Below are positions 2,629 to 21,628 of a stretch of 64,000 bases of DNA, one piece after another (the first letter of the stretch is position 1; each line of letters starts with the position of its first letter). This stretch comes from Escherichia phage vB_EcoM_Lh1B. Both the position numbers and the translations under genes were made by a program. The stretch lies in sequence record OK428535.1; one strand, 5' to 3'. The notes under the pieces were generated by a model. That model was not told the origin of the DNA. It did not search any database and worked only from the letters and a program-made list of their open reading frames with translations.

Positions 2629-3948
2629 ATGATCAACTATAACAAACCTGTCATGCAGCTGGTTTGGGATCAGATTAATCGTGATAACCCGCAGCTCAAG
2701 AAACCACTCAACGCAACCAACGTGGCGTTATTACAAGGTCCTTTAACCAATGCCTTGCGCGATGGCCGCAACAGCCGTATAGTGGTAAACGGATTACAGG
2801 GTGGCGGTTACAGCGGTAAGATGGACATCTACTACGACCGCTTAAACCTTTCGCAGTATTTTAAAGGCGTCAGCGTACCGGTTAAAGTACCTTATCGGGC
2901 GACGTCCTACCGCGACATCATCGACCGGATTTCCGCAGCTTGTGGGCTGGTGCTTACTGCTGACGATTTAACGTATCCTGACAGCCAGTTTGCAATGATC
3001 ACTGTGGCAACGGGCGATCGGACGGTGGCGATTAAATCGGATAACCCCGCATTCACGGGTCACATTCCTATTAGCTTTATTCGTGAAGAGCCCAGCTTTG
3101 CCGACTTGTACCACACCACCGAAACCGGAGCTTGGGAACCCATGGATGTTTACAGCACGGTCTATCGACTCGACTGGAGCATGTACACCCAACAGATAAT
3201 CAATATCCCGATGGGTACCCCGCTGCGACTAAACAGTAACTCGTACATGACCCAGTTCATCGCGGCGCTGTCGGCATGGTCGGGCATCCCGTTCACTATC
3301 GGTAATGCTGCTACTGATAACCCGTATGACCTCTATGGGTATGTCGCTACACGCAATAACAACCCAGGCTTAGACCCTGATATGCGTGGGGAGTACAATT
3401 ACTGCGTGAAGTTGACGCCACCTGAGGATATGGGTAATCTCCGCCGTCCGTTCTTCTTGCACTTTGGTCCGAAAAATAACGTGGCCNATTTGGCGCAGGA
3501 AAAGGANGNCGAACGTTATGCGCGTTACATGAGGTTCCGGGAAACCAGCCCAAATTCGATGAGCGTCACGTTGTATCAAAACGAGTACGTGTTGACTCGG
3601 GCAGAATCGCCTGAAACTGCGGATGATTTAACGGGTTCCCCGTATGGCACTCGATACTGTACCGGGAGTATTCGACGGCTGATGCAACACGCGTTTCCGA
3701 CCGAAGAGATGTTCCAAGAAAGTATTGCTAACCGGCGTCGGGTACTGTACCACACTGCTTACACCACCACGACATCAGCTATTACTTACCAGGGACTATA
3801 CCGTAACGGATACCAATCCAAACAAATGACGAGCCTCTACTCGAATTACTGTAACTATTTCATCTATTACGACCCAAGCAAAGGCGGCTATATGGTCTAC
3901 AGTCCATATAGCAAAACCGCCCCGGTCCCTTGGTATCCACCGCTATAG
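2629..3948 (+). CDS. putative tail fibre / virion protein
   Basis: 439-aa ORF; C-terminal motif YYD..G.M...PY.K.AP.PW shared with the C-terminus of CDS 3963-6131. Confidence 0.6.
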   Translation: MINYNKPVMQLVWDQINRDNPQLKKPLNATNVALLQGPLTNALRDGRNSRIVVNGLQGGGYSGKMDIYYDRLNLSQYFKGVSVPVKVPYRATSYRDIIDRISAACGLVLTADDLTYPDSQFAMITVATGDRTVAIKSDNPAFTGHIPISFIREEPSFADLYHTTETGAWEPMDVYSTVYRLDWSMYTQQIINIPMGTPLRLNSNSYMTQFIAALSAWSGIPFTIGNAATDNPYDLYGYVATRNNNPGLDPDMRGEYNYCVKLTPPEDMGNLRRPFFLHFGPKNNVAXLAQEKXXERYARYMRFRETSPNSMSVTLYQNEYVLTRAESPETADDLTGSPYGTRYCTGSIRRLMQHAFPTEEMFQESIANRRRVLYHTAYTTTTSAITYQGLYRNGYQSKQMTSLYSNYCNYFIYYDPSKGGYMVYSPYSKTAPVPWYPPL

Positions 3949-3962
3949 ACTAAGGTGTCACC

Positions 3963-6131
3963 ATGTCCTACACTCCTGATTTAGTGGCGACCNTGATTCG
4001 GTCGCTCAACCGTAAAAACGCGGTCGCCAAAGCAGTAGACCCCGCTAACGTTCGCCTGGTGTCCGTGGAGCATCGTGACGAAAAAACCCTAGACGTCACA
4101 CTGACAGGGGGTCCGGGGTATTCAAGTTACGGTCAAATTACGGCCCAAGTGACGAAGCAAAATATTGCTGATTATTTCGCTAAGGTTAAGTTGGATGCCA
4201 TTCCCACCTGTGCATCCATCCACGAGCTGTTGCCGCATTTAGACACTCTACTAGGGATTACCTTTTTAACCGACGACTTTGAAGACCTGCCTATCACTTG
4301 GACAAACAATGCTGCGCGCATCACGTTCCAGGCGAAACAGACAAGTCTTATCTGGTACGGCAGCCAAACGCTAGATGTGATAAACGGTGACGTGGATATC
4401 AACACTGTCTACACTGTTACCAATATCATTCTCACGCTAAAGGCTGCGAATAAACAGCAGTGGATTAACTTCTACTCTAATGCAGCCAAACGGATCGTGG
4501 ATCTTGATAAAGTCGATGTCAGCGCCCCGATGTCCCCGGAGGATATAGGCCAAACCTCTGCGTATAACAGCGTCGTGGCTTTGACCGCTAGACCGGGGAG
4601 CGGGATGTTTGGAACGAAGTATGTGTTCTTCTCACGTAACAAACTCGAGACATATGCAGGCAAAACCACATACGTCCCGGATGATTTCACCGGTAGCCTG
4701 CACGATGCTCTGGCCATCGAGACACTCGGCATTCGGAGCGTTTTTGATGTAAACGAAATTGCTCCTGTAGAGAACCTGGCAGGCGAGTGGCCGAGACAAG
4801 TGCAATTGGCACCCGTAGAGGGTTCGTACAAAGTCATGGGCAGCGCCACGTTGAATGTGGCACGCTATCAAGATAACGAGCAAACCCTTAACCTGAACTA
4901 CACAACTACGTCGCAAGTTTCGGACAGCTACTGGGCCACGACGTTGACCAACCATGCGGCGTGCGGGCGTTTGTTTNTTAACGTGACCGTAGANGNGGGG
5001 GNTTTNGTTTTTCGCNCCAACAACCTAAAACCGACGTTCGTTATCGACGAATTGCCGCAAATTGGCGAGGTGGTTTGGAACTTCGTTAACCGGGGAACCA
5101 TTCTTGGTCGNGGTGGTTCGGGTATGGTCTATTCTCTGCCTGCGAACACATCAGCAGACGGAGCTGACGCAATCCACATTACCGATACCTTCCGCGGCAA
5201 AGTCACCATCGAAAACTACGGCACCATCGCCGGAGGTGGGGGTGGGGGCGACTACTATGCGTTTACCACCNCCAAGNTCGGTGGAGCTGGTGGTGCGCCT
5301 CTCGGGCCAGGCGCGGCGGTACCCAGCGGCACCAATAACCGTAACGGCTTAGCTGGGTCCCGTGACAAAGGCGGTGCTACCCAGTTAGTCGTCGCACAAT
5401 TTACCGGCTACCAGAGTCGCNACTATGGCGGTCCTGGTGGCGATTGGGGCCAGCCGGGACGATATACAGCGTTCGAGCAATGGAACACCCCGGCTACCGG
5501 CTCGCCGGTCTATGTCTACGGTCGTGAAGACGGGATGTCATGGACTCGCCCTGGGATGGCAGGCGAAGCCGTCGGTGGGAATAAAAGTATCGTCAACNGG
5601 GTATCCNTCGNAACGGGGAAACCNAATTTCACCNACGAGTACCAANAGTTCCNCNNCNACCNCNCAGATTTAGATNCCAACCGATTGGCCAGTGCGGATG
5701 GGATAGATAAAGTCACCGACCCAACCAAACCTGTAGTTGTGGAGTTCTTAGGTACGATTATTTCAGGTACGCTNTTCAAAAAGCAAAACATACCCGGCGG
5801 TTTGGTGGGAACACCATACGGCGATGCTGTAGCCAACTTACCGAGCACCACATTGTTTGGTATCATGGCACACTGTGTATCGGAGTTTGATATTGTGCAC
5901 GACACTTGGCGTTACAACCGTGCGGTAATGTTCACCCTAAAACCCNCNCCTACCGGGGCGATTGGCCTCGCTGTGGAACGCAACCGGGTGAAATCGGCTA
6001 CCAGTAGTACACCGGTGGAGAGGTTCTATGTCGATCGCTTCGTGTATTACGATGCGTATCTCGGTAAAATGATGGAATGTAATCCGTATACCAAATCTGC
6101 CCCTAAACCGTGGGTGCGGCCAACGATATGA
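3963..6131 (+). CDS. putative tail fibre protein with Gly-rich repeats
   Basis: 722-aa ORF with poly-Gly/GGxGG stretches (GGGGGGDYY..GGAGGAPLGPGA) typical of fibre shafts; shares its C-terminal module with CDS 2629-3948; contains n-runs. Confidence 0.65.
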   Translation: MSYTPDLVATXIRSLNRKNAVAKAVDPANVRLVSVEHRDEKTLDVTLTGGPGYSSYGQITAQVTKQNIADYFAKVKLDAIPTCASIHELLPHLDTLLGITFLTDDFEDLPITWTNNAARITFQAKQTSLIWYGSQTLDVINGDVDINTVYTVTNIILTLKAANKQQWINFYSNAAKRIVDLDKVDVSAPMSPEDIGQTSAYNSVVALTARPGSGMFGTKYVFFSRNKLETYAGKTTYVPDDFTGSLHDALAIETLGIRSVFDVNEIAPVENLAGEWPRQVQLAPVEGSYKVMGSATLNVARYQDNEQTLNLNYTTTSQVSDSYWATTLTNHAACGRLFXNVTVXXGXXVFRXNNLKPTFVIDELPQIGEVVWNFVNRGTILGXGGSGMVYSLPANTSADGADAIHITDTFRGKVTIENYGTIAGGGGGGDYYAFTTXKXGGAGGAPLGPGAAVPSGTNNRNGLAGSRDKGGATQLVVAQFTGYQSRXYGGPGGDWGQPGRYTAFEQWNTPATGSPVYVYGREDGMSWTRPGMAGEAVGGNKSIVNXVSXXTGKXNFTXEYQXFXXXXXDLDXNRLASADGIDKVTDPTKPVVVEFLGTIISGTXFKKQNIPGGLVGTPYGDAVANLPSTTLFGIMAHCVSEFDIVHDTWRYNRAVMFTLKPXPTGAIGLAVERNRVKSATSSTPVERFYVDRFVYYDAYLGKMMECNPYTKSAPKPWVRPTI

Positions 6132-6190
6132 TTATCGTAATTTAACGNGGAACTTGNCGGGTTTAAANCCNGAANANAACCCNNNCCCNN

Positions 6191-6218
6191 TTCCCCNCGG
6201 GGAAGNGGNTTTNTTTTT
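6191..6218 (+). terminator. probable terminator (low-quality sequence)
   Basis: ttcccc-n-cggggaa hairpin followed by a T-run, inside an n-rich patch. Confidence 0.3.
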
Positions 6219-6836
6219 ATGACCCTATCAACTCAGGAGGTTATCGTGGTCGATCGTTGGAGTAAAGAGGGCATTATTCGTGCCAAAGTAAACATCGAAG
6301 CCGGTTACGTTAATAACCCGAAAGATTTGGGCAAAGCAACGAACCGCGGTGTCACCGAACTCACTGCGCGAGAATATGGCTATAAAGGGGATATGCGTGA
6401 CCTGAGCTTAGAAATCGCGTTAGACATTTACAACAAGCTCTGGTGGCAGCGGATGCGTTTAGACCAGATTATGAAAATGAATGTCCTGCTAGCTGACCGA
6501 ATGTTTGATTTCGGCATCAACGCAGGACGCGGTAACTGTATCAAGTCCCTGCAACGTATTCTGAACGTATTAAACCGCCAGGGTAAACTATACGATGATA
6601 TCGATGCCGATGGTGGTATCGGGCCACGTACGTTAACAGCGTTAGAAGGCTTCATCAAAGCCCGTGGGGAAGAGGGCCTGAATCGACTGATGTTCGCTTT
6701 AACCTGTCATCAGGTTGCGTATTACACGGAAATCAGTGAAGGGCGTGAGGATAACGAAGAGTTTACTTACGGCTGGTATGGCCGCGTCTATCAGGAAATG
6801 CCAGACTACGTGGCTAAGTTGGGGATGTGCAAATGA
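6219..6836 (+). CDS. endolysin: GH108-type N-acetylmuramidase with PG_binding_3 domain
   Basis: N-terminal EAGYVNNPKDLGKATNRGVTE matches the GH108 EGGYvnDP..GG.T..GIT signature; C-terminal DADGGIGPRTLTAL matches the PG_binding_3 DG.iGp.T..AL motif; no signal peptide or TM segment. Confidence 0.8.
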   Translation: MTLSTQEVIVVDRWSKEGIIRAKVNIEAGYVNNPKDLGKATNRGVTELTAREYGYKGDMRDLSLEIALDIYNKLWWQRMRLDQIMKMNVLLADRMFDFGINAGRGNCIKSLQRILNVLNRQGKLYDDIDADGGIGPRTLTALEGFIKARGEEGLNRLMFALTCHQVAYYTEISEGREDNEEFTYGWYGRVYQEMPDYVAKLGMCK

Positions 6837-7024
6837 AACAGAATTGGTTTGCTGCCTTAATGAAAGCTATCTGGCGCGCCCTTGTTTTTGCCNNAAGGAG
6901 AAAACGAAATGACCCACCGTCCAACTCCGCCTAAGTTCCCCGAAGTACAAACCGTTCCGGAAACGTATTACGATTCTGGGTTCTTCAAACTATTACGCGC
7001 GATCTTCTGTCGGAGGGTAAAGCC

Positions 7025-7117
7025 ATGCAATACGACAACGACGACTGGCCGAAAGGCTTAATGCCCATTTTACTGGGATTAATGGTCCTCACGATGCTCG
7101 TGCGTTATATGACGTGA
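7025..7117 (+). CDS. tiny single-TM peptide (30 aa)
   Basis: ATG preceded by GGAGGG; MQYDNDDWPKGLMPILLGLMVLTMLVRYMT has one hydrophobic helix; below the ORF-track length cut-off. Confidence 0.3.
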   Translation: MQYDNDDWPKGLMPILLGLMVLTMLVRYMT

Positions 7118-7124
7118 GGTCAGT

Positions 7125-7766
7125 ATGGAAGCACTTAAGTATAAGTTGTTAGAGAAGCCGTGGTTTATCCTCACGGATGATTTCCATTTCGAGTTTACGT
7201 TGCGCAGCCTCTATCGTGAGCACACCGGAATGGATGCGATGGTAGCATTAACAGGTGTACACCCGGATACTCCGTTATGGGTAACGGTACCGAAAGGATT
7301 TGTAACGGACCTGGCAAGCATTCCAGAAGCGNTNCNNCCTATCCTNCNNCCGGANGGGCCTTGGGCCGCNGCCNCTTGTGTGCATGATTTGTTTTACCAG
7401 AAACGTTCATCGGGGGTCTTGTACCCTGACACTGTCGAAGGTAATCTATCTCGTGCATGTGACAAAACATTCGCTGACCTGATGTTCTTACGTATCATGG
7501 AGGCATTAGGCGTTGACACCTTTATTCGTAAGTCCTTCTACCATGCCGTTCACGAGTTTGGTTGGCCGTCCTATGTAGACGATAACTCTAAGGTGGTTTA
7601 TAGCCGGCCGGTAGAAAAGACGTTGTCCTATAATCGCAACTACCTGTTCTTTAGAACGTCGCGTACGTTAGCGATTCCTGAACACGAACGTGTTGACATT
7701 ACTAATGGGCAACCGGTAAACGTGCAGTATTTGAATATCAAACGTGCGTTCCTGACTACCCCTTAA
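7125..7766 (+). CDS. hypothetical protein (DUF1353-like motif?)
   Basis: 213-aa ORF with GAGG RBS; motif VTDLASIP...CVHDLFY resembles the DUF1353 signature from memory. Confidence 0.55.
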   Translation: MEALKYKLLEKPWFILTDDFHFEFTLRSLYREHTGMDAMVALTGVHPDTPLWVTVPKGFVTDLASIPEAXXPIXXPXGPWAXAXCVHDLFYQKRSSGVLYPDTVEGNLSRACDKTFADLMFLRIMEALGVDTFIRKSFYHAVHEFGWPSYVDDNSKVVYSRPVEKTLSYNRNYLFFRTSRTLAIPEHERVDITNGQPVNVQYLNIKRAFLTTP

Positions 7767-7775
7767 GGAGAGAAA

Positions 7776-8291
7776 ATGTTTCATCCGAATCCTGCCAACT
7801 TCGCGTTAAAAGAGTTGATGCCGCAGGAGTACATCGCGAAATATGGTGAAGGTGCTATTCGTTTCCTTAATCCGTTACTGCTAATCTCGCTCCAACAGAT
7901 TCGTAATCGTTTTGGGCGGATGGTGATTTTAACCAGTTCCCAGCAACAGCGTAGTCTGCGTACCCTGCAGTTCTTTATTAATCAAGAGAAACCAAAGGGT
8001 GGAGATTGGCAAACTCGTGCAAACAAACTGTACGCCGAATCAGGCAGTATGCATAAATTCGGTAATGCGTTTGATGCAACAATGCTTGATACACCGTTGC
8101 AGAAAGTACACGACTATATTGCCGCGAACCCTAACGAGTTTCCGTTTATTCACTTTATCGAGTGCGATATTACCTGGCTGCATGTTGACGTACGCAACCA
8201 GCCTGATATCACCTTCTGGTCACCGACACGTGGTACCGTTAAAGTGGTTAAGCAACAACCCATCGATTGGAGCAAGCTAGTTAAAATCTAA
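7776..8291 (+). CDS. peptidase M15-family (Peptidase_M15_3-like) cell-wall peptidase
   Basis: AAGGAG RBS; motifs SMHKFGNAFDAT and WLHVDVRN match the Zn-binding S.H..G.A.D / HVDVR signature of M15 D-Ala-D-Ala / L-Ala-D-Glu peptidases. Confidence 0.6.
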   Translation: MFHPNPANFALKELMPQEYIAKYGEGAIRFLNPLLLISLQQIRNRFGRMVILTSSQQQRSLRTLQFFINQEKPKGGDWQTRANKLYAESGSMHKFGNAFDATMLDTPLQKVHDYIAANPNEFPFIHFIECDITWLHVDVRNQPDITFWSPTRGTVKVVKQQPIDWSKLVKI

Positions 8292-8383
8292 GCCACTTTA
8301 ATCAAAAGTAATATCATTTATCATTTGATACGTTTAATGCGCTTAGAGAGCGTTACAGAGCGTTTTAGAGGGTAAATAAAGCC

Positions 8384-8414
8384 CTTACCCACTCCCCTTA
8401 CGGGAGTGGGTAAG
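8384..8414. terminator. bidirectional rho-independent terminator
   Basis: Stem CTTACCCACTCCC / GGGAGTGGGTAAG with A-rich 5' and T-rich 3' flanks, between convergent genes. Confidence 0.6.
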
Positions 8415-8416
8415 CA

Positions 8417-8908
8417 TTATTTATTTTCTTCTAACGGAACAATCGTAATCGGAGTAGGAACTTCACCGATAAACCCGCTGCTGCAGCGAAAGAATGTCAT
8501 CCCTTTACCTTCGCCGGTATACGGGTTCACATCCGAAAAAGAATAAGTGGGGCTATCGTTTACGGTTTTATTAATACGGTAATAACGCTCACCTGTGGTG
8601 GTGTTAACATTCCCGTCGATTTTGCCGATCACGTCTTTAAACATCATCGGTGACTCTAGTTTGCCACCGTCCCACGCTGCTACCCAGTTTGCACCCACAT
8701 CCATTACTGTTACTGACCGCGGCATCATTTGTAGGTTGTCCAGTACCGGACGGTAGTCTACAAACTTCTCCTGCGTCCCTGTGCATGTATAAATCACCAA
8801 GTCGTGATTCTTTACTGGTGTGGCGCTAAATTGTCCTATGTTGCTTGGCGACTGAACACAACCGGCCAACAGGTTTATAATCGCGAATACGATAAATAGA
8901 CGTTTCAT
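8417..8908 (-). CDS. lipoprotein (possible superinfection-exclusion or receptor-masking protein)
   Basis: Signal peptide with lipobox MKRLFIVFAIINLLAGC; AGGA RBS. Confidence 0.65.
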   Translation of the reverse strand: MKRLFIVFAIINLLAGCVQSPSNIGQFSATPVKNHDLVIYTCTGTQEKFVDYRPVLDNLQMMPRSVTVMDVGANWVAAWDGGKLESPMMFKDVIGKIDGNVNTTTGERYYRINKTVNDSPTYSFSDVNPYTGEGKGMTFFRCSSGFIGEVPTPITIVPLEENK

Positions 8909-9032
8909 AGAGTATCCTTTCAGTGGTAAAAACTTTCTCGTTTAACAGCCAACTTTACTGTCATATTAAGCCCACTATGTTGTTTTTAGAACGATTTAGT
9001 ATGCACCACAAACCTACTATAAGGAAACAACC

Positions 9033-9581
9033 ATGGCAGTCATCTCTGCAAAAGACCAACTCGTCGCGCTGTTTAATGCTGCAAACAGCGGACTGTCTAG
9101 TCCGTTAACTACTGCTGACGTTACATTCGGCGCTGTTGCTGACTATTCACCAGCAGATTCTGGAGACACTCGCAACTCCAAACTCACCATCACTGCCACC
9201 GCGGAATCCGCTAACTTTACGGGCGAGAAAGAGCTGCACTATACCCGCCTCGATTCATTGAACATCATCGGTGCGAAAGCAGTTACCGCTGACCAGGCAG
9301 AATGGGATACCGATGAAGAAGTGCTTGCTTTTGTCAACGCAGATCTAATTGCCGCCGGTAAAACGGAAGATGCGTTTGCATTGTCTGAACTCACCATTTC
9401 ACGCGAGGACGGCGACAGTGGTGAGAAAATCATCACTGTTATGGTGAAAGAAGGCCACATTAAATACCAGCCTGCCAGCCTTGCAGTTTATACTGTAACG
9501 CAGCCAATCGTTAAAACTGACCTGAGCACCACCAACGGTGAACTAGACGGATTCGTTTCACAAAACAACGTTAGTATGTAA
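9033..9581 (+). CDS. hypothetical protein sharing a C-terminal motif with the first CDS
   Basis: 182-aa ORF; C-terminus DLSTTNGELDGFVSQ is paralogous to the TNGELDGFQ end of CDS 2-634. Confidence 0.55.
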   Translation: MAVISAKDQLVALFNAANSGLSSPLTTADVTFGAVADYSPADSGDTRNSKLTITATAESANFTGEKELHYTRLDSLNIIGAKAVTADQAEWDTDEEVLAFVNADLIAAGKTEDAFALSELTISREDGDSGEKIITVMVKEGHIKYQPASLAVYTVTQPIVKTDLSTTNGELDGFVSQNNVSM

Positions 9582-9620
9582 CTAAGAAATTAGTAGTTTC
9601 TAAGAAATAAATAAAAGGTA

Positions 9621-9644
9621 CCTACCTCCCTTCGGGGAGGTAGG
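9621..9644. terminator. bidirectional rho-independent terminator
   Basis: CCTACCTCCC-ttcg-GGGAGGTAGG hairpin with TTCG tetraloop and A/T-rich flanks, between convergent genes. Confidence 0.6.
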
Positions 9645-9661
9645 GCCTTTATTTTCTTTGC

Positions 9662-10333
9662 TTACATGCCGAGTGACTCGGACAATGTTTTTAATCCGGT
9701 GTAATCGCGCTTTTCAGCTAACTCACGGATTTGGCGTTTGTTATCTGCCATTGCTGAGTGCAACACTTGGTCACGTGCAACAATAGCGGCCAGCAACGCT
9801 TTACATTGGGCTACTGTAAACGGACTGTGCTTAGTATTCAGCGTATCGAGCCAGTATTCTGGTGCGGTATCTGCCTGAATGTATTGACCGAGGATGGTAC
9901 GCGACGATTCATCGGCTTGAAAGTGACTACCTTCAAACTCGATATAACCATGGCGCTCATCTTCGTAGCGGTGGTCGAGTTCCAACAGCATCTTCTGCAC
10001 GTCTTCGTAAATGTAACGTGCGGTAGATTTCAGATTCCCGCGAATTTCGTCGAGGTCAATCTCCAGCACATTAGCAATAAACTCTTTCGTGCGTTTCAAT
10101 GTGAAGTTAGCTTCAATCTCCGACATCTCATACAGCTTCATGCGTGCCAGGGCTTCTTTATCAGACATCCCTTCGATGAGATGGTAATGGAGTAATGCAC
10201 AAAATCCGGTACGACCCTGATCCTGCGCACCGATTCGTTCCATGAAATTACCGTGACGATCAATCGGCAAATCACGCTGGAAATAACNGGCGCGGATCTC
10301 TTCGTTCGTTAAGCTTTTGTCAGTAACAGACAT
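9662..10333 (-). CDS. hypothetical protein, last gene of the rSAM/Cys-peptide operon
   Basis: 223-aa ORF with GAGGAGG RBS; overlaps the upstream gene by 25 nt. Confidence 0.55.
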   Translation of the reverse strand: MSVTDKSLTNEEIRAXYFQRDLPIDRHGNFMERIGAQDQGRTGFCALLHYHLIEGMSDKEALARMKLYEMSEIEANFTLKRTKEFIANVLEIDLDEIRGNLKSTARYIYEDVQKMLLELDHRYEDERHGYIEFEGSHFQADESSRTILGQYIQADTAPEYWLDTLNTKHSPFTVAQCKALLAAIVARDQVLHSAMADNKRQIRELAEKRDYTGLKTLSESLGM

Positions 10334-10875
10334 TCGTCCTCCTCAATCAGGCCAAGTTCTAACAACAAACCGAAGTCCAGCATCTGGAAGTCCTGATCGA
10401 GGTTACCGGCCCACAACAGAGAAATGTTGTGTTGCTCTTCTTCTTCCAACTGCGGGAGCAGGTGTTCTTCGAAGATTTGACGTTCTGTGTAATAAGCGTC
10501 AACCGGGTTATTGGAGCGTAAGTTACGAATACGCATCCGCGGGAATGACAAGCCCAATGCCACTAAACTTTCAGGACTGGCTTCATCAATAGAGTGACGT
10601 AGCAGTTCGATTTTGTGGCGTGGGTATGCAAGCAGTCGCTTCTCAAAGCCAGGGTTGCGCTTTTCGATTTCCGCGACAGACTCGTGTCCTTTCTCAACGC
10701 AGTAGACCGGGATCATCACATTCAGCCCGTATTTAATCAACAGGCTTTGGATTTCATCAGTGAAGTCTTCCCCTGCCACAATTGCGTGCACATTGTACAG
10801 CTTGCTTTTGCGCAGGAAGCGATCGACCAAGTGCAGTTTACGCTTCGTAAAATTGTGAATCAGTATTGACTTCAT
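10309..10875 (-). CDS. hypothetical protein (start uncertain)
   Basis: ORF 10309-10953; most plausible start is the ATG at 10875 (MKSILIHNF...) with GGAG RBS; overlaps the rSAM/SPASM gene. Confidence 0.5.
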   Translation of the reverse strand: MKSILIHNFTKRKLHLVDRFLRKSKLYNVHAIVAGEDFTDEIQSLLIKYGLNVMIPVYCVEKGHESVAEIEKRNPGFEKRLLAYPRHKIELLRHSIDEASPESLVALGLSFPRMRIRNLRSNNPVDAYYTERQIFEEHLLPQLEEEEQHNISLLWAGNLDQDFQMLDFGLLLELGLIEEDECLLLTKA

Positions 10876-12166
10876 TCTGGGCTCCGTTTTGTAATTTTTC
10901 TGCTTCGGCACGTTGGCGTACACAACGTGAACAATAGCACATGGATTTATCATGCAAATCTGATGCGCGAGTCGTACCAGTTTTCTGATACCAATATTCC
11001 GCCGCCATCAGCTTCGCAGTAGTCCAACCACACTGACGACGCTCGGCGTGATACGCTTTACGGTCTTCCAGTGTACCTTCACCGTTTTCGTACGATGCTG
11101 CTGCGCAGCTACCGCAGCTGTGTTTCATCGGACACCCTAAACAAGTTTCTGGGTAGTTGGTGTACTGCGTTTGAATCTCTTCTAACAGCTTACCGCCGTC
11201 CAGGCTCACAAACTCACGACCGACCAGTTCCGCTACAGCAGAGCGGGAAGTTACCGTGGACATGAAACGGTTACAACCGTAAATCTTGCGATCAAAGCCG
11301 AGACAGGTCATGTGCGTCAACGTACCGCAGTACGGTTTCAGGCGTTCTGGGTCGAGACGAACAGAGTCGTCATGTAAGAGTTTGTCACGCCAATCCGGGT
11401 CCCAAGTTGCCATAAAGTTCAGGCCATCCGGGATGATGTGCGTAATCGTGTTACGCGGGTTGGTGTGCAGACCCTTCTCAATCCAGTAGTCCATCACGTC
11501 CATCATCTGGTTCGCGATATCCAACGCCATATGGCGCGGCAGGATATCTTCGTACGTCACGTTACCAGAAATGGTACCACCGCCGGACATGTCAATTAAC
11601 GATTTCATGCTGGCGGCATAGTGCGGCAATGTATCGATCGTAAACGTCGCCTTTACGCCCAGTTCAGCGATGCCAACACTCTTCAGATAATTGTAACCGC
11701 GTACCGCAGCTTCGTACGACCCTTCACGCGTCGTGGTAAAGATACGATATTTGTCATGGACTTCAGGTAAACCATCGATGGAGACCCCAATAGACAGTTT
11801 GTCTTTCCAGCGCTCGATAATTTCTTTGTTCAGCGGACGGTCCAGAAGCGTACCGTTCGTGGAGATACTGAACATATACGGGCGATTGTGTTCTGCGCAT
11901 AACTTCTCTGCGGTTTCAAAGGCCGCCAAAAGAAGTTTAGGCTGCATGAACGGCTCACCACCGATGATATCGATGATGACTTCAACGTTCGGGATATCTT
12001 TATCACGCTCGAAACAAGCGTGGATAAAATCAATCACGTCTGCTACTTTGTTGTTACGCGGATATTTACGCTCGTAGCAGTATTCGCAGTCCAGGTTACA
12101 TGACAAGTTAGTCACAACCTGATACGTGCGTGGTGTGTACTGGATTTGCTGTTCGTTATTACTCAT
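10838..12166 (-). CDS. radical SAM enzyme with SPASM-type C-terminal Cys cluster (anSME/peptide-maturase-like)
   Basis: CNLDCEYC (Cx3Cx2C) at residues 23-30; C-terminal CLGCPMKHSCGSC plus further Cys residues typical of SPASM auxiliary Fe-S domains. Confidence 0.8.
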   Translation of the reverse strand: MSNNEQQIQYTPRTYQVVTNLSCNLDCEYCYERKYPRNNKVADVIDFIHACFERDKDIPNVEVIIDIIGGEPFMQPKLLLAAFETAEKLCAEHNRPYMFSISTNGTLLDRPLNKEIIERWKDKLSIGVSIDGLPEVHDKYRIFTTTREGSYEAAVRGYNYLKSVGIAELGVKATFTIDTLPHYAASMKSLIDMSGGGTISGNVTYEDILPRHMALDIANQMMDVMDYWIEKGLHTNPRNTITHIIPDGLNFMATWDPDWRDKLLHDDSVRLDPERLKPYCGTLTHMTCLGFDRKIYGCNRFMSTVTSRSAVAELVGREFVSLDGGKLLEEIQTQYTNYPETCLGCPMKHSCGSCAAASYENGEGTLEDRKAYHAERRQCGWTTAKLMAAEYWYQKTGTTRASDLHDKSMCYCSRCVRQRAEAEKLQNGAQNEVNTDSQFYEA

Positions 12167-13073
12167 TGTTCGCCGCCCGTTTACGCTTAGCAGAAATTAC
12201 ACGGTTGATGTAGTTATACGCATCAACGCCGATAGAACGCGCCAGGCGATTACAGCCGACTTCCAATATCTCTGGGGCGTTCTGAATTTGCTCCTGCGTA
12301 CCGTCGGCGTTAAGCCACAGCACTTCACTGCACGTGTTGCACTCGGTATCGAACATTTTACTGATCGCAAGCCCACATTCAGAATCGTTCTGCATGTTAA
12401 GGCGTTCGATATTGTCGAGTATTTTCCAATACCCGTACATGAAGTTCATGACGTGGTCTGGCGATAACGGTTTCGGCATCATCGCATCAAACAACAACGA
12501 CACACCACCTGGACGGTAATGATAGATTGCTCGGTGCAGCTCGATGAAATCTTCGTACCAGCGTTTATCGCCTAACTGGTCACGCGTCATCACACCCCAG
12601 GTGTAATAATTGTCCAGCTCGTACAGCACTTCCAGCGCTTCGTGATTACCACCGTTTACAAAGTTCATAAACGGACGTTCCGACTTCTTGTAGCCGTCAA
12701 TGGACACAAAGATAAGGTCGAACTGTTTCAGCAACGGCAGATGTGATTTACGCATCTTTAAACCGTTGGTGTACATGTGATGACGGAGGTTCGGATGAGA
12801 CTCCTTCAACTCGTTCACGAAGTCTTCAATCTTACGCTGCGCTAACAGCGGCTCACCGCCCGTCCAATGAATCTCACCGATATCCGGATTCTTCTCTAAA
12901 ATCGAGAGAATCTCTTCACGTTGAAACTCACGAGAAGTATCTTCTCTATCCATGTAATAAGCCCCTCCACAGAAGCTACAGTCTAAGTTACACTTAGAAG
13001 TTGCGACAACCGACAGAATTGACGGTTTGTCGTACAGTTCAGACGAGATCCTGGATTCTACTTGATCTGTCAT
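12159..13073 (-). CDS. radical SAM enzyme (second, shorter)
   Basis: CNLDCSFC Cx3Cx2C motif near the N-terminus; C-terminal ECNTCSE...GCN partial Cys cluster; stop overlaps the start of the downstream rSAM gene by 8 nt. Confidence 0.75.
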   Translation of the reverse strand: MTDQVESRISSELYDKPSILSVVATSKCNLDCSFCGGAYYMDREDTSREFQREEILSILEKNPDIGEIHWTGGEPLLAQRKIEDFVNELKESHPNLRHHMYTNGLKMRKSHLPLLKQFDLIFVSIDGYKKSERPFMNFVNGGNHEALEVLYELDNYYTWGVMTRDQLGDKRWYEDFIELHRAIYHYRPGGVSLLFDAMMPKPLSPDHVMNFMYGYWKILDNIERLNMQNDSECGLAISKMFDTECNTCSEVLWLNADGTQEQIQNAPEILEVGCNRLARSIGVDAYNYINRVISAKRKRAANNE

Positions 13074-13094
13074 TGCAGGTTGCTCCAGTATTTT

Positions 13095-13982
13095 TTAAAT
13101 ATAATCAATGGCGAATAAAGGATCTTCGTCTACGTTAGCGCCAGGCACCAGTAACATCGGGTCGTGATAGGCAGCTAAAATTTTGTTCAGGTCGGCGTGT
13201 CTTTCGTTCAGACGTTTCAAATCGGCCAACGTTACCGAACGACCACGAATCTCAGAAACAGCTTCTGCTTCTTCTTTCGTTAAATCCACCTTCGTTAAGA
13301 GGAAACTTACCAGCTTACTCAAATCCGCTTCTGTCGCCGGGTAATCCCCATATCGGGTTTGAACCAGGTGTTGCATCCACGGCTTACGAATACGTTTGGT
13401 GATTTCAAAATCGTCAGTCAGCGCATACCAGACAGAACGCTTTTTATCCCACACGAACTTATAGCTATACGCCATCATGTCCGCTAAACGGGTGATGCCG
13501 AGTTCTTTATACCCCTCGATATCGATGTATGGTTCGGTGTCGAAATACGTTTCCGTATCGGCAGGTACCAGTACAAAGTAGTAAGGGAACGAGCCCAGAT
13601 AGTCCGGACTCCACCAACGGCGCGCCATCGGTTTTGCTTCAAGTTCGTCAAACGGTGTAAACATCAGTTCTAAATCGACGCTGTTGTTCAAAATCCCTTC
13701 GCTGAAGAAATACTTACCGTCGACTAACACGCCACGAGAGTTACCATCGCCGTTAAAGATAACGATGGCCTCTGCAACCATATCACGGATCTTAAACGTA
13801 TTTTCTACGGTGTAGTTCTTCTTGTCGGTCAAGAAGCGACCACGAACCTTTGGCCACTCACCAGGAATCTGTGCAATCAGTCTGACTTTGTCAGCAAGGT
13901 GCGCACGCACTGAATCTGGGGAAGATAGATGCAGCGGGTGGTTGAATGTGGTTTTATACGCAAGATGCAAATCGTTTTTCAT
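13095..13982 (-). CDS. hypothetical protein co-operonic with rSAM enzymes
   Basis: 295-aa ORF with GGAG RBS immediately after the peptide genes; no motif recognised. Confidence 0.55.
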   Translation of the reverse strand: MKNDLHLAYKTTFNHPLHLSSPDSVRAHLADKVRLIAQIPGEWPKVRGRFLTDKKNYTVENTFKIRDMVAEAIVIFNGDGNSRGVLVDGKYFFSEGILNNSVDLELMFTPFDELEAKPMARRWWSPDYLGSFPYYFVLVPADTETYFDTEPYIDIEGYKELGITRLADMMAYSYKFVWDKKRSVWYALTDDFEITKRIRKPWMQHLVQTRYGDYPATEADLSKLVSFLLTKVDLTKEEAEAVSEIRGRSVTLADLKRLNERHADLNKILAAYHDPMLLVPGANVDEDPLFAIDYI

Positions 13983-14004
13983 TTAATACTCCGAACGTTT
14001 TCTG

Positions 14005-14211
14005 TTATCGATTCCCCGCTCCACGGCTACAGCTTCCGCTGCAGGACCAGCTACACCCACCATTACAGTTATAGTGAGAAAGCGGTAAGCCAGCCAGGTT
14101 ATTTGTGGTCGACACGGTGCCCTGGTTAGCGATATAGTTGTTTGCCTGTGCGGTTGTAATGTAACCTTCTACCGTAACGAGACGGTTTCGAATAGTCTTG
14201 AGACTGATCAT
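14005..14211 (-). CDS. Cys-rich peptide, short paralog (leader + truncated core)
   Basis: 68 aa; leader MISLKTIRNRL... and core SHYNCNGGCSWSCSGSC are paralogous to the two larger peptides; GGAGG RBS. Confidence 0.55.
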   Translation of the reverse strand: MISLKTIRNRLVTVEGYITTAQANNYIANQGTVSTTNNLAGLPLSHYNCNGGCSWSCSGSCSRGAGNR

Positions 14212-14226
14212 ATAAGCCTCCGTCAG

Positions 14227-14631
14227 TTAGGAGTTAGGACCTGAACAACCACCAGAACACGCGCCGGAGCAGTTTGCGGAACAGGATTTGCCACAGCCGC
14301 CAGAGCAGTTACCAGTACACGTTCCGCTACAACCACCAGAACATGAAGAGCTGCAACCCGTACAGCTGCTGCTACAGCCCGATACACAGTTTGCGGAACA
14401 AGTCGACCCACAACCACCCGTAGCAGACCCAGTACACCCGCCAGAACAACTCGAGCAACTAAAAGAGCATGTGCCACCACAGTCATAGTGCGAACGGCCT
14501 TGACCTGCGAACAAGTCGGCGTTATTCGTAGCTTTATTGCGAATGTAGTTTTGCACATTCGTGGTGTTCTTTAAAGCGTTTGCATCGATCGTGTTTAATC
14601 GGTTATTCAGTTCTTTTAATCCAATTGCCAT
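14227..14631 (-). CDS. Cys/Gly/Ser-rich repeat peptide (candidate rSAM substrate)
   Basis: 134 aa; about 45-aa helical leader (MAIGLKELNNRLNTIDANALKN...) followed by an about 85-aa core of CSGGCSG-type repeats with more than 20 Cys. Confidence 0.65.
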   Translation of the reverse strand: MAIGLKELNNRLNTIDANALKNTTNVQNYIRNKATNNADLFAGQGRSHYDCGGTCSFSCSSCSGGCTGSATGGCGSTCSANCVSGCSSSCTGCSSSCSGGCSGTCTGNCSGGCGKSCSANCSGACSGGCSGPNS

Positions 14632-14641
14632 TTAATCCCCC

Positions 14642-15034
14642 TTAGCGACCTGAACAGCCGCCGGNGCAGGCCCCGGNGCAGTTTGCGGAANAGNAGCCNC
14701 CNCAACCNNCTGAAAAGTTACCGGTACAGCTACTACTGCAACCACCAGAACAACCAGAGCAACCAGAACAGTTACCGCCACACGTCGAAGAACAGCTACC
14801 GATACAAGAAGCAGAACAGCTTCCTGAACAGCTCGAACAGCCATGCGAGCAACCGTTAGAGCANGTCCAAGAACATGTCCCGCCGCAATCTAGCTGTGCT
14901 TTCGTCCAACCCCCAAATCGGTCTGCTGCATTATGGGCTTTAGAGGCCACTTGCGCCTCGATGCGGGGGCCTGTCGCCATGTTAGCTTCGACNATCTGGA
15001 CGCGGTTTCTGACGTCTTTAATAGATATCGCCAT
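14642..15034 (-). CDS. Cys/Gly/Ser-rich repeat peptide (candidate rSAM substrate)
   Basis: 130 aa; same leader/core architecture (..LDCGGTCSW.CSNGCSHGCSSCSGSC..); AAGGAAG RBS. Confidence 0.65.
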   Translation of the reverse strand: MAISIKDVRNRVQXVEANMATGPRIEAQVASKAHNAADRFGGWTKAQLDCGGTCSWXCSNGCSHGCSSCSGSCSASCIGSCSSTCGGNCSGCSGCSGGCSSSCTGNFSXGXXGXXSANCXGACXGGCSGR

Positions 15035-15045
15035 TACGCTTCCTT

Positions 15046-15090
15046 AAAAAGTAGAACGAGCGGACTATGTCCATAAACATAGTCCGGCTC
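15046..15090 (-). terminator. stem-loop / partial terminator between fibre gene and peptide genes
   Basis: Inverted repeat CGGACTATG...CATAGTCCG with T-run on the minus strand, directly upstream of the RBS of the first peptide gene. Confidence 0.4.
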
Positions 15091-15099
15091 GTAAACAAG

Positions 15100-16302
15100 T
15101 TACTTAGTACCCGCTTCAGCTTGAACATCGTCGCGCGAGGTGAGGCTGTTGTTGACGTGAACAGCAGCCTGCACAACACCTCCATACTGTTTATGGAGGT
15201 AATTCGGGTGTGGGTTATCCGCAGCCGCATGGTTCGCCAGATTCTGGTTTGCCTGCGAAATTGCGTTGGTGTTGTTTATAACCTGAGTTTTAAGACTGTT
15301 GATTTGTCCTTGCAGGTTATCAATTTGCTGTTGGAAGTCTTTGCCCTGATTCTCAAGATCCGTGACGCGCTGATTTGTTTCATTCAGTGCAGACTGAAGA
15401 TCGTTAACCATCTTCTGTAATTGCAACACCAGAGAATTAAGGTTAGCTAATGCTAACGACATTTTCTGGTAATTTTGAGCAACCACGTTAAGCTGGTCGT
15501 TCCACGCGGCTAACGAAGCCACAATTGCATCGATGCGTTGCCCCAACGCCGTGTCTGCTNCTCTTAAGTCGCCGATATCGTTGATAGTGGCGTCAATGGC
15601 AGTCTGTACACTTTGAATCAGGGCACGAATCTCCGTCTCCGTCAGGCCATTAACCTGATGAATGTCGAGATTGTGTACGTTACCTTCGGCGTTGATGTGT
15701 GTATTTAAGGCGTCGAGGAAGTCGTTTCTCAGACCGTCCAGAATACCTTTAATTTCTTCCAGCTGTACTGCAGAGCCGGAGTTAATCGCATCTTTAATCC
15801 CCGCGAGTACGGTAATGATATACTCAAAACCGTAGATATCGCCAAGGTCTTTATACGTCGGGGCGGACGGGAACGTATCGGGTACGTTTCGAAGATCCTT
15901 GAAGTCCACCACACGGTCTTCAATTTTCAGCGACGCAATCGCTTGTCGGATGCCTTCGACGTTCGCGGACTGAAAACCACCAACGACTTGCGCAGAGACT
16001 TCGATATCAGTAGGAATGGCCGAGTTAGTTACCACCACACCCATGACCACTTCGCGGTTCTTGGTCATTTTCTGATATGCAGTATGTGCAAAAATCAGTT
16101 CGTAGTCTGTGCCGCGTTTGTACGGGTAGACACCTGGTTTATTCGCAGCTGCCAAGCGGAAGGTATCCGCGTAGAAAGCTCCGTCAGGAAAAGCAAAAGC
16201 CCGGTTAACTTTACCAGAACCTAACGTAATACGCCGTGTAACGGCGTTCGACGTTAATGTCCCGGTAAGGTCGAGCGGGTACTGATGAATGATTTCGGCC
16301 AT
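15100..16302 (-). CDS. short fibre-like protein: N-terminal tail-attachment domain plus coiled coil
   Basis: ATG at 16302 with AAGGAG RBS; N-terminal PxGxFY...RGTDYEL motif shared with the three large fibre proteins; long heptad-like Q/N/L-rich segment. Confidence 0.65.
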   Translation of the reverse strand: MAEIIHQYPLDLTGTLTSNAVTRRITLGSGKVNRAFAFPDGAFYADTFRLAAANKPGVYPYKRGTDYELIFAHTAYQKMTKNREVVMGVVVTNSAIPTDIEVSAQVVGGFQSANVEGIRQAIASLKIEDRVVDFKDLRNVPDTFPSAPTYKDLGDIYGFEYIITVLAGIKDAINSGSAVQLEEIKGILDGLRNDFLDALNTHINAEGNVHNLDIHQVNGLTETEIRALIQSVQTAIDATINDIGDLRXADTALGQRIDAIVASLAAWNDQLNVVAQNYQKMSLALANLNSLVLQLQKMVNDLQSALNETNQRVTDLENQGKDFQQQIDNLQGQINSLKTQVINNTNAISQANQNLANHAAADNPHPNYLHKQYGGVVQAAVHVNNSLTSRDDVQAEAGTK

Positions 16303-16349
16303 TGCCAAACTCCTTTGATTGGGGCTTCCTTGCCCCATAGCGCTATCTG

Positions 16350-19300
16350 TTAGGTACGGAACATAAGATTGACCTGGATAATATCAGGCTGTTGACGTCC
16401 TCTCTCGTTCACCCAATCGTGTGCAATCGTTAACGTAAGATCATCGCCTTCCCACGACACGATCGGTGGTGGGAATAAACCCTGAGCGCCCGTGGTAACA
16501 ACCGGGATTGCACCTGCCACATTCGTAAACGTATAGCTACGACTGTTCAGAACAACCGGTGTGCCGTGGGTCTCTCCCGGCTGTGGTAAGATTTGAATCT
16601 TACTATCCGAAAGATCGGTGGTGATTGGTAGACCCCCAGCGTCCGTGAAAAGCCAAGAGCAAATATNCTGGTTNGCTGTTTCGAGCGCTGAAGAACTCTT
16701 CACAGCCGCGAAAGTAAAGGTGCACGGCACGCCTGCTGGCAGAGAGTGCTGTTTGTGGTGCACGGTATGTGGTGACGGCAATAACACTTCTGGATTTTCG
16801 TCAATGTTAACATCCGTACCTTCCGCCTCGACGTTGTAGAAAAAGCCATCCACCGCCTCCCATGGGGCAACGTGGACATTAAAGGTCGTTTCTACTCCCG
16901 GTGTACCTGGGACGACGAATTTACTTTGCACCACCACCATCATAGTTCTTGAGGTCGGTGAGAAAGCGGGCGTTGGAATACCTACCCACTCCATTCCCAA
17001 CGATGCCGCTTCACCGTTCTCATCAGCCGTTACCGTCGCGATTGTTGTAGGATGTTTCCAAAACGCCCCCGACTTGTTTGCCTGAGTAAACGCCGGCAAA
17101 GTTTTCAAGCCTTCGAAACGTTTGGACACCATCGCTTTACCGCGACGCTGTGCGTCAGATACGGTATAAAGCAACTGACTATCCAGATAGCCTTTCGTAG
17201 CATCGATCGACAAAGGACCCATCGCTTCTTTACGCAATGGTGCCAGTCTGCCCGTTGCTGCATCCCTTCCCACTTCCACATCATGCTTATTCTCAACCGC
17301 CGCATGTTCCAACAGTTGTTTCACCGCCCCCAATCGCTTAGCATGTTCGACGTTAGTCTCGACGACTCGTGACGAGCCCGTTTTAACATACCCGATATAG
17401 AGTTCCGTTTCAGTGTCTGGATGTTGAATCACGTCCATTACGTACTTCGGTGTACCATTTTCTACCTTGGCGTGCAGGTAGAATGTCCGGTTCTGATGGT
17501 TTGTTGGAAATGCTGCGCTGAGGTCAATATACCACGTAGGCAGCTTATAAGTGCTCGAGCCGAAACGCAGGTCAACTTCCTCAGTCACATATACCAGCCA
17601 ACCTTCGGCTGTTTCCACNCCAGCAATGACGACCGATTCAGTCGGGCCACTAAAATTAGGAGCCGCGACAAAATCACTCGACGACATTGCGATACCACCA
17701 CAATAGACGTAGTCGAGAGATGAGTTGTGTAGCATCACCTGATCACGATGAGCCAGATAAGCTGGGCTGACTGGAGTGTGTGATGGTGCCATGCGTCCAA
17801 TGCCGTGTGGAGCAGAAGAACGCGTCCAGGTACCATTAGACAGCGTAAGACCAACACCGTAGTTAAGCGCACCCAAGTCGCCAATTTGGCGCAAGGTTAA
17901 CGTGTGTGGAAGATACAACCCGAACTGCGTACCATCTACTGACACCAGTGTAGGTTGTCCCGGCCGGCGTGTTTTTCCTCCCGTTATCTCACCCAACGTA
18001 GCATAGTTCAAGCCATAGTCGAGGTTGTTATAGAAGTCAAACAATGCCAATATCGCTGCCGGGAATGTTACCTGCCCGTTACTGATTGTTGGTTTCAGTG
18101 TAAAGTAGTAGATATCCAACAAGTTAACATTGTTCACAGTACGCGTACATGCTACTTGTGCTAACGTGAGCGGTGTGGCCGTACCAATGCCGATGAACCA
18201 AATGGAGAACAGTGCCTTTCCGGCGTTATTTGCGGCAAGGATAAATTCCGAAGCATAACCATTCGCAGCGCCAGCCGGTGCGCCGTCGATAATCATCTGC
18301 TTCATCTTATCCCATTCGGCTTGTGACAGCGTCAACCGATCGGCATGAATCGTGAAAGTGCCAGAAACGTTGTGGTAAGGGAATGTTTCTGGTCCTGTGC
18401 AATACCAGCCGTTTAACTCTGTACCAGGCGACGCCGGTGTAACAATGTGGCACATCTGCGACAGATTCTCGTACGTGGTAGAATCTACTACACGACGATT
18501 GTTAGTTGGTCCATACCCCGCTTTACCTGAATAAGTGGTGTTCGGATCAAACTCAACTTCAATTGCCAAACGGGTACGCGGCTGTGACAACCAGATAAGT
18601 CTGGAATTCGCTCCCAGAGTCAGCGGATACGCCATGCCCAGCTCGTAGATAGAACCACGACCTTGGTTTAACATTACCGCACTAAAACTTCTGGCAGTGA
18701 AGTTGTAGTCGCACGACAGGTACTCGTACCAACTCACACCGTCATCTAACGTTGTAATCGTGACATAAGGCATTAGGTCGCGATCGCCTGCATGTCCTTG
18801 CGAAACGATATACTTGTCTTGCGATGTTGCAAAGGTTCGGTTATTAGCTTGACCTTCGCCCCATTTCCGGCTCGGAATCCCAATCTCAGCGCCACCGTTA
18901 TAACGAACCGTGGTAAGATCGGCCACAATAGGGAATCGATCAGCACCTTCCAGCGTTATCGTCATTGAACTACAATCAACAACAAAGCTTGACACCCATT
19001 GTTTAAAGTTAATAGTTTGCCCTGTAGTAGAAGCAAACCAAACCGTTGGAGTTAAACCAACACGAAAGTTCAGCCCATCCACACCAATCGCGTGATTACA
19101 TTCCGGACCATGGACAAATTTCGTCGCACTATTCCACTTCGCCGATGCGTCTGCGTAGATTTGTGTTACTGGCGCTACCAACACATCTGTATCAGAACGN
19201 TTCTGACCCTGACGCAAGTAGATATTATCTCCCGACGTTAACATCCCACCTGTTAACACATCCGCCACAAACGTGTTGCTACCACCCAGATTAAGTTCGT

Positions 19301-21533: not shown

Positions 21534-21546
21534 TGCAAACACTCCT

Positions 21547-21592
21547 AATCTGTAATAAAACGGAGACCGCCCTCCCAATAACGGAAGGGCGG
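21547..21592 (-). terminator. intra-operon terminator/attenuator
   Basis: Hairpin CCGCCCTCC...GGAAGGGCGG followed on the minus strand by TTTTATT, between the 1376-aa and 1727-aa fibre genes. Confidence 0.4.
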
Positions 21593-21628
21593 TTTACCTA
21601 CGGACTACCCGCCCGTAGGCAGTCCGTC

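Follow-up and report, generated by a model that had tools for sequence, protein, structure and literature searches.

What two radical S-adenosylmethionine (rSAM) enzymes and three cysteine-repeat proteins are doing within a block of phage structural genes is the question raised by a cassette in Escherichia phage vB_EcoM_Lh1B (record OK428535.1). The stretch analyzed, here called the window, is 64,000 nucleotides long, and all elements of the cassette lie on its minus strand at 9621-15034. The window falls within the SPN3US group of jumbo phages (Seoulvirus). At 9600-15100, its identity is 99% with the SPFM and MET_P1 phages and 97.8% with SPN3US itself. The cassette was deduced to be, with reasonable probability, a phage-encoded post-translational modification module for tail-fiber components. 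The genes on which this deduction depends are the following.

15034-14642, minus strand: pepA, Cys-repeat protein of 130 amino acids
14631-14227, minus strand: pepB, Cys-repeat protein of 134 amino acids
14211-14005, minus strand: pepC, Cys-repeat protein of 68 amino acids
13982-13095, minus strand: gp165-like accessory protein (phrog_8030), 295 amino acids
13073-12159, minus strand: rSAM2 (gp164), 304 amino acids
12166-10838, minus strand: rSAM1 (gp163), 442 amino acids, overlapping rSAM2 by 8 nucleotides

The major data supporting a fiber-related function came from the occurrence of these genes elsewhere. From the context of rSAM1 homologs at 31-39% identity and from scans of genome and viral collections, 13 independent loci were obtained outside the SPN3US clade, one of which (L035) closely resembles another (L011). 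An rSAM1-like and an rSAM2-like gene were present in all 13, a gp165-like gene in 12, and a Cys-repeat open reading frame (ORF) just upstream also in 12, the thirteenth locus (L036) being cut by a contig end. The recurrent unit is a four-gene module consisting of a Cys-repeat protein, a gp165-like protein, a short rSAM enzyme, and a SPASM rSAM enzyme. The first-pass annotation, made from the letters of the window, had proposed a search of related phages, and the module was in fact found to extend well beyond the clade. Its context was a tail, fiber, or baseplate region in 10 of the 13 loci, in λ-, T7-, P2-, and T4-like phages, as follows.

L006, L011, L027, and L035: downstream of GpJ-type tip proteins, in prophages of Deferribacter and Desulfoluna and in two other contigs
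L012, L013, and L034: after T7-type tail-fiber genes
L030: after Baseplate_J
L008: adjoining a T4 gp13-like neck gene
L009: the Cys-repeat protein itself bears a tail-collar fiber N-terminal domain

The T7-like metagenomic contig L034 proved particularly informative, as rSAM2 and rSAM1 are fused there in window order into one protein of 668 amino acids (8330-10336), with a gp165-like gene and a 206-amino-acid Cys-repeat fiber-like protein upstream. This fusion is strong evidence that the two enzymes work together. Two closely similar loci of the GpJ-type prophage kind, L011 (Desulfoluna butyratoxydans, 5291-8119) and L035 (a metagenomic contig, 5306-8134), have three consecutive radical SAM genes instead of two. 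Among isolates, the module has so far been seen only in the SPN3US/Erwinia/Cronobacter jumbo clade, and a tblastn search of cultured phages with a distant gp165-like protein gave no match.

The position of the Cys repeat within its homologs was equally instructive. In eight loci (L006, L008, L009, L011, L027, L030, L034, and L035) the repeat forms the extreme C terminus of a fiber-like protein of 206-568 amino acids. All eight of these proteins have fiber repeats or coiled coil, and they match phrog_6085 from the junction onward. In most of them the repeat is preceded by N-A-x-x-L-x-G-Q-x-x-x-Y-Y-R|C-x-(G)-C-S-W-T-C, which is the junction found in pepA, pepB, and pepC. The counterpart of the apparent leader of the window peptides is a segment that follows a fiber shaft of 150-480 amino acids, with the Cys domain still attached. 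Homologous Cys domains were also found fused to proteins with matches to Phage_tail_fib (24.2 bits, cutoff 23) or to tail-fiber PHROGs, and homologous substrates such as the L008 fiber carry the Pfam family PF27846 (tSAM_targ_Cxxx_rpt). Since the N-terminal ~50 amino acids are homologous to the pre-repeat segment of these fiber-like proteins, the leader is better interpreted as a fiber junction segment, and what the module yields as a modified fiber component, not a released peptide of the RiPP type (made by ribosomes and then modified after translation).

The three Cys-repeat proteins are paralogs, each composed of an N-terminal part of ~50 amino acids and a (C-[S/T]-G-x)n core. Their only PHROG match was phrog_6085 (2.6e-35 for pepA, 1.8e-41 for pepB, and 2.8e-25 for pepC), and when their N termini were compared with the other ORFs of the window, similarity was found only among the three themselves. 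PepA has 21 Cys, mostly in a CXXX register, with the junction reading NAADRFGG...LD|CGGTCSW and the C terminus ending in CSGR in the N-free SPN3US sequence. PepB has 20 Cys and the C terminus CSGPNS, while pepC has the N-terminal part of its paralogs and a CNGGCSWSC motif with just 4 Cys in the window, and 2-3 in the versions of CR5 and Kwan. The interval from one Cys to the next was four residues (CXXX) in 176 of 209 cases and three residues (CXX) in 32. The core consists to 87% of G, C, S, and T, with 0.8% D and 0.2% E, and has the consensus C-[S/T]-G-[G/S/T]. It always starts with C-x-G-x-C-S-W-[T/S]-C, and the usual ending of pepA and of pepB in the SPN3US-like phages is ...CSGP. Matches to known CXXX target families were weak, at 16.3 bits for pepB against TIGR04114 (cutoff 20) and 15.6 bits for pepC against TIGR04117 (cutoff 50).

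These Cys-rich reading frames are genuine genes under purifying selection. All three, with their own starts and stops and in the same order, are retained in the N-free genomes of four genera, represented by SPN3US, Asesino, CR5, and Kwan, and substitutions in comparisons with relatives are concentrated at the third codon position (27/17/77, 31/27/76, and 15/8/27 being examples of the counts by position). The possibility that they are frame artifacts of a single broken fiber gene, which the first-pass annotation had itself raised, was rejected on the basis of the separate ORFs in clean genomes and the third-position bias. An origin as slippage-prone repeat DNA was rejected as well, as no significant tandem repeat was detected at the DNA level in the Cys-rich genes. 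The runs of N that had been noted at 14660-14710 proved to be isolated single N's of a kind spread over the whole window (315 N in 279 runs, nearly all single). They do not represent gaps, their density is highest at 1-8 kb, 28-32 kb, and 36-56 kb, and none shifts a cassette frame. This pattern agrees with that of the low-quality SPFM assemblies, whose proteins in public databases are corrupted accordingly (e.g., P0081-P0084).

The same genes are poorly represented in deposited records. The RefSeq and GenBank entries for SPN3US carry a wrong-frame ORF of 111 amino acids, gp166, over pepB (14223-14558 on the minus strand of the window; 22624-22959 in NC_027402, L001) and omit pepA and pepC, and several related records show no feature there. 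A protein search with pepB returned only 18 matches, which is attributed to gene callers seldom calling such ORFs.

Both enzymes contain the radical SAM domain PF04055 above its cutoff of 29.5 bits (55.6 bits for rSAM1 and 58.8 bits for rSAM2), and rSAM1 has the eight SPASM cysteines, so that the initial recognition of two radical SAM enzymes, one of them SPASM-like, was borne out. The cluster-binding CX3CX2C motif of rSAM1 (C23, C27, and C30) and G69-G70-E71 were invariant or nearly so in 19 sequences. The SPASM cysteines C280, C288, C298, C342, C345, C351, C354, and C379 were kept in 19 homologs, down to 31% identity. The best NCBIfam matches were TIGR04115, the maturase family of CXXX-repeat targets (3e-36, 125.6 bits), and PapB (1e-32, 113.6 bits). 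Eight distant rSAM1 homologs behaved similarly, with TIGR04115 ranked first or second (115-157 bits) and PapB at 120-163 bits, down to 1e-47. Because these homologs likewise score below threshold with TIGR04115 and PapB on top, the rSAM1 family is placed by its sequences as a sister clade of the TIGR04115 and PapB families. Among solved structures, the rSAM1-family profile aligned best with CteB (PDB 5WGG; E 3.8e-36, residues 10-346, which is nearly the full length, with the SPASM domain aligned), and anSME was second (E 1.3e-17). A RiPP recognition element (RRE) was not found in the rSAM1 N terminus or as a discrete cassette protein. The C-terminal tail of rSAM1 (residues ~400-442; window 10838-10960) contains an additional C-x-C-x-x-C cluster, KSMCYCSRC, past the SPASM domain. 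This tail belongs to the SPN3US-like clade and is missing in distant homologs.

For rSAM2, the CX3CX2C motif is at C28, C32, and C35 and is accompanied by GGEPLL and three conserved C-terminal cysteines (C245, C248, and C274), which possibly hold one auxiliary cluster. With only three such cysteines, rSAM2 is not a full SPASM enzyme. Its closest profile matches were the peptide-modifying entries 8VPO, ChlB, CteB, SkfB, and YydG. In the deposited SPN3US annotation gp164 begins at M41 and loses the CX3CX2C motif (lost portion at 12954-13073 on the minus strand of the window; 21355-21474 in L001), although the full 304-amino-acid ORF is intact both in SPN3US and in the window. QueE- and NrdG-like families of nucleotide metabolism, which the first-pass annotation had named as the contrary case, and also MoaA and viperin, were rejected as identities for these enzymes, as their matches span only the shared core of ~110 residues and were weaker than those to peptide maturases. 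From these comparisons both enzymes are classed as peptide-maturase-type radical SAM proteins.

The remaining member of the module, gp165, gave no match in Pfam or NCBIfam. Its fold was predicted with confidence (predicted local distance difference test [pLDDT] 90, predicted template modeling score 0.85), and no known relative of the predicted fold was found. Only 50 clusters emerged when 1.84 billion representative proteins were searched with a profile, the distant ones aligning to the C-terminal half. The protein therefore appears, as far as its homologs indicate, to be a rare dedicated accessory protein. It is encoded where fiber chaperones usually sit and probably presents the substrate or acts as a fiber chaperone.

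The other features of the cassette and its upstream neighbors are as follows.

10875-10309, minus strand: gp162-like protein (phrog_7988), 188 amino acids
10333-9662, minus strand: gp161, DUF4376 protein, 223 amino acids, with a weak tail-protein PHROG match
9621-9644, both strands: bidirectional intrinsic-terminator-like hairpin at which the cassette ends, with a 10-bp stem (7 GC pairs) and a T run on either strand
15056-15092, minus strand: conserved stem-loop (-24.3 kcal/mol, z -3.7) that lies past the gp167 stop and ahead of the pepA start, with a T-rich stretch after it
15100-16338, minus strand: gp167, 412 amino acids, upstream of pepA
16350-29485, minus strand: gp168, gp169, and gp170, giant paralogous baseplate/tail-fiber candidates of 1742, 1376, and 1237 amino acids

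The inventory of the first-pass annotation (three Cys-repeat paralogs, a 295-amino-acid protein, two radical SAM enzymes, two further proteins, and a bidirectional terminator) was recovered in full on the minus strand. Its description of tightly packed genes with ribosome-binding sites also agrees with the data, as a Shine-Dalgarno-like sequence precedes each gene start, the 8-nucleotide overlap of rSAM2 and rSAM1 is at 12159-12166, and the Cys-repeat genes lie 0.9-2.9 kb upstream of the radical SAM genes on the same strand. What had been counted as four giant tail-fiber genes is, on the other hand, three giants and one 412-amino-acid gene that shares their N-terminal domain. The placement at the 3' end of a fiber operon was correct insofar as the cassette is directly downstream of these genes on the same strand. 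A single unbroken operon is uncertain because the conserved hairpin separates the 412-amino-acid gene from pepA. Compensatory changes have preserved the stem of this hairpin in four other phages (Asesino, CR5, Kwan, and L015), with an invariant TATG in the loop, and the hairpin could be a terminator, an attenuator, a transcript boundary, or a promoter-related element. The open frame of the gp162-like gene extends to 10953, yet its PHROG match begins at M27. Conservation of gp161, gp162, and gp167 was not seen outside the SPN3US-like clade, to which the gp162-like protein is limited.

Attention is drawn to gp167 as the possible partner of the Cys-repeat proteins. It matches phrog_2163 in common with the N-terminal ~600 amino acids of gp168 (16350-21578). 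Besides a fiber N-terminal domain and a long coiled coil, it has the motif NPHPNYL close to the C terminus, and it lacks a distal domain. The protein thus resembles the fiber paralogs and may be counted as their short fourth member. Since the N-terminal domain and coiled coil are present and the distal domain is absent, it is a plausible candidate carrier for pepA, pepB, and pepC. Mass spectrometry of SPN3US virions detected gp167-gp173, with gp163, gp164, and gp165 absent, and gp168-170 were named baseplate/tail-fiber candidates in the same work (PMC5694885). The absence of gp163-165 fits enzymes and assembly factors, not structural parts.

From these data the following mechanism is proposed. 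The substrates would be C-terminal domains of ~10-28 C-[S/T]-G-x repeats following N-A-x-x-L-x-G-...-Y-x-C-x-G-x-C-S-W-[T/S]-C. Such a domain is the distal end of a full fiber protein in most lineages, and in SPN3US-like jumbo phages it is carried on three small separate paralogs. The SPASM enzyme gp163 and gp164 would act jointly on the Cys repeat in the reducing cytoplasm of the host, with assistance from gp165. The likeliest product would be a ladder of thioether cross-links, each accompanied by a loss of 2 Da, which might serve as a covalent, reduction- and protease-proof stand-in for disulfides. A thioether ladder is the most economical prediction because virions assemble in the reducing cytoplasm, where disulfides cannot form. 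The chemistry of PapB and CteB is Cys-to-carbon thioether formation, at 2 Da each (PMC9413430, PMC12373016). Ser and Thr, which stand beside Cys in a near 1:1 ratio, are possible acceptors. The product would then be built into the fiber apparatus, plausibly on the gp167 coiled-coil fiber.

A broader proposal is put forward more tentatively, as we are slightly more inclined to doubt than to accept it in all its parts. In phages of at least five tail architectures, radical SAM chemistry may be used to equip the distal end of tail fibers with a domain in which cysteines are covalently cross-linked like a ladder. No earlier virion protein modified by radical SAM enzymes would then be known, and the domain would constitute a fiber tip of a new class, a "covalent foldon." The SPN3US-like jumbo phages would have this domain divided among three small proteins, and these would come together on the gp167 coiled-coil fiber, perhaps in heterotrimeric form.

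The first-pass annotation had favored a RiPP-like cassette, and such an interpretation requires that the ~50-amino-acid leader be removed and the modified Cys core be released at lysis as a free peptide with a bacteriocin-like, signaling, or host-manipulating function. Small precursors beside rSAM/SPASM enzymes are indeed a hallmark of RiPP systems, and bacterial CXXX systems consist of exported peptides with a twin-arginine translocation (Tat) signal and a linked TatC. Furthermore, the substrates of L012, L013, L029, and L037 are only 75-110 amino acids long without a recognizable fiber part, L029 and L037 being in nontail contexts. Release of the core is, however, difficult to reconcile with the homology of the leader to the pre-repeat segment of bona fide fibers that keep the Cys domain attached to 200-480 amino acids of shaft, with the tail modules surrounding 10 of 13 loci, or with the position of the cassette inside a structural gene block whose proteins are kept across four jumbo-phage genera. 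In addition, no protease, exporter, or double-Gly-type cleavage motif was found in the cassette, and searches of its eight proteins against Pfam, NCBIfam, and PHROGs gave no peptidase or transporter families. A released peptide was therefore deemed quite unlikely. The RiPP-like proposal stands as regards maturase-type enzymes and genuine Cys-rich genes and fails as regards a leader/core precursor, for which no protease or exporter was found, while the alternative offered with it, modified fiber-tip components, fits better than a bacteriocin-like product because of the fiber-junction homology.

The same targets could in principle undergo a different reaction, such as formation of formylglycine from Cys or Ser (anSME), epimerization (YydG), or formation of C-C or other links. 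The standing of anSME as the second-best solved relative of rSAM1 would agree with this, but the anSME motif C/S-x-P/A-x-R is absent from the repeats. YydG and SkfB are likewise among the top rSAM2 matches, the substrate has no Asp or Glu acceptor, and the presence of two rSAM enzymes per module, or three in L011 and L035, suggests more than one reaction. Cys-thioether synthases and the CXXX-repeat family were nevertheless closest by a wide margin, and the density of Cys, at one per 3-4 residues, agrees with a reaction at Cys. Other chemistry on these targets was accordingly considered unlikely. It was deemed very improbable that the Cys-rich proteins are unmodified, being metal binding or disulfide bonded, and that the enzymes are metabolic. 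The sole statement found on these genes, in the SPFM genome paper, is of this kind, with radical SAM genes taken to enhance host metabolism (PMC6614189), and a generic similarity to MoaA, QueE, NrdG, and viperin does exist in the first ~110 residues. This similarity is confined to the core and far weaker than that to peptide maturases, and a metabolic role would leave unexplained both the fusion and the strict co-occurrence of four genes across λ-, T7-, P2-, T4-like, and jumbo phages.

Several observations weigh against a modification module for fiber components and were taken into account in grading it. The scores of rSAM1 are far under the family cutoffs (125.6 versus 350 bits for TIGR04115 and 113.6 versus 340 bits for PapB), and the Asp/Glu acceptors used by PapB are all but absent from the substrate core. 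The AlphaFold model of pepB had a pLDDT of 42.6 and gave no confident structure. The short peptides of L012 and L013 are without the fiber junction motif, and in L029 and L037 the module, again with short peptides, is located away from tail regions. The last two loci suggest that the module can also serve nonfiber substrates. The hairpin between gp167 and pepA means that the cassette may be a transcription unit separate from the fiber genes. Finally, pepA, pepB, and pepC were missing from the search database of the SPN3US virion mass spectrometry and have few tryptic sites, such that their detection was impossible there. As regards L037, a 104-kb phage contig (features at 2269-4537 and 9248-9919), two S-AdoMet lyase genes lie upstream of the SAM-dependent enzymes at a distance of a few kb, and the module is followed by a DUF4376 gene, in parallel with gp161 of the window.

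A curated family comprising an rSAM/SPASM enzyme and a CXXX-repeat target is already known, and the link to phage tail fibers appears to be new. A literature search turned up no paper in which radical SAM enzymes are connected with phage fibers or with these peptides, and likewise no description of the paired enzymes with a gp165-like component or of split substrates in jumbo phages. If the fiber interpretation is true, radical SAM peptide chemistry, which has been studied almost only for secreted natural products, would also make virus particles, and covalent links would be made in a reducing cytoplasm on a phage part that survives outside the cell and touches the host surface. It would also explain a conserved and misread gene set of a well-studied jumbo phage, with its unannotated or misframed peptides, truncated enzyme start, and "metabolic" enzymes. 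The orphan CXXX-repeat rSAM family would gain its first biological context, and tail-fiber assembly and stability would gain a new element relevant to host-range engineering. The amber-mutant genetics and published virion proteomics of SPN3US make the interpretation directly testable, and the enzymes and substrates are small.

Of the known systems, the CXXX-repeat system (TIGR04115 with TIGR04114, TIGR04117, or PF27846) shares with the phage module a protein with Cys at every fourth residue encoded beside an rSAM/SPASM enzyme. This family, reportedly defined by Haft and Basu in 2011, is to our knowledge a bioinformatic definition, and we know of no characterized chemistry for it. The phage module differs in that the scores of rSAM1 and its homologs (115-163 bits) fall short of the cutoff of 350, it has a second rSAM enzyme and a gp165-like protein in addition, and the substrate has a fiber junction or whole shaft where the bacterial one has a Tat signal. 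A bacterial CXXX locus, L033 (788-4638), has a Tat-signal peptide, one rSAM enzyme, and TatC, without a gp165-like gene or rSAM2. The bacterial peptides P0178, from this locus, and P0180 have twin-arginine signals, P0168 has a comparable N-terminal region, and these signals, with the dedicated TatC of the P0178 locus, suggest export of a product that is already modified or folded.

An rSAM core and a full SPASM domain are common to rSAM1 and the enzymes of the PapB/PapA (freyrasin) and CteB/CteA (SCIFF, thermocellin) systems, and the CX3D spacing of PapA (PMC9413430) resembles the repetitive CX3-type spacing of the phage substrates. The phage enzymes match the PapB hidden Markov model at 1e-32 to 1e-47 but remain below its cutoff (113-163 versus 340 bits), the CX3D/E acidic acceptor motifs of the PapB system are missing from the phage core, and the N-terminal RRE region of CteB (~100 amino acids) is without a counterpart in rSAM1. 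PapB and CteB substrates are short secreted peptides, whereas those of the phages are proteins of 68-568 amino acids in tail modules. The His-Xaa-Ser system is alike in having a substrate with a short-period repeat (HxsD), two different rSAM enzymes (a SPASM enzyme and a shorter one), and an extra protein (HxsA). Matches were obtained for rSAM1 with HxsB (4e-21, 75.2 bits, cutoff 370) and for rSAM2 with HxsC (6e-12, 45 bits, cutoff 267.9), but the repeat of that system is HXS and that of the phages CXXX, no HXS repeat being present. We know of no phage or fiber context for the His-Xaa-Ser system.

The T4 fibritin foldon, intramolecular chaperone domains, and Tfa/gp38-type chaperones are not Cys-rich and need no radical chemistry, and no similarity in sequence or fold to the phage module was found. 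What they share with it, as a functional analogy only, is an extreme C-terminal position followed by a dedicated accessory gene, a fiber gene followed by its assembly factor being the usual layout.

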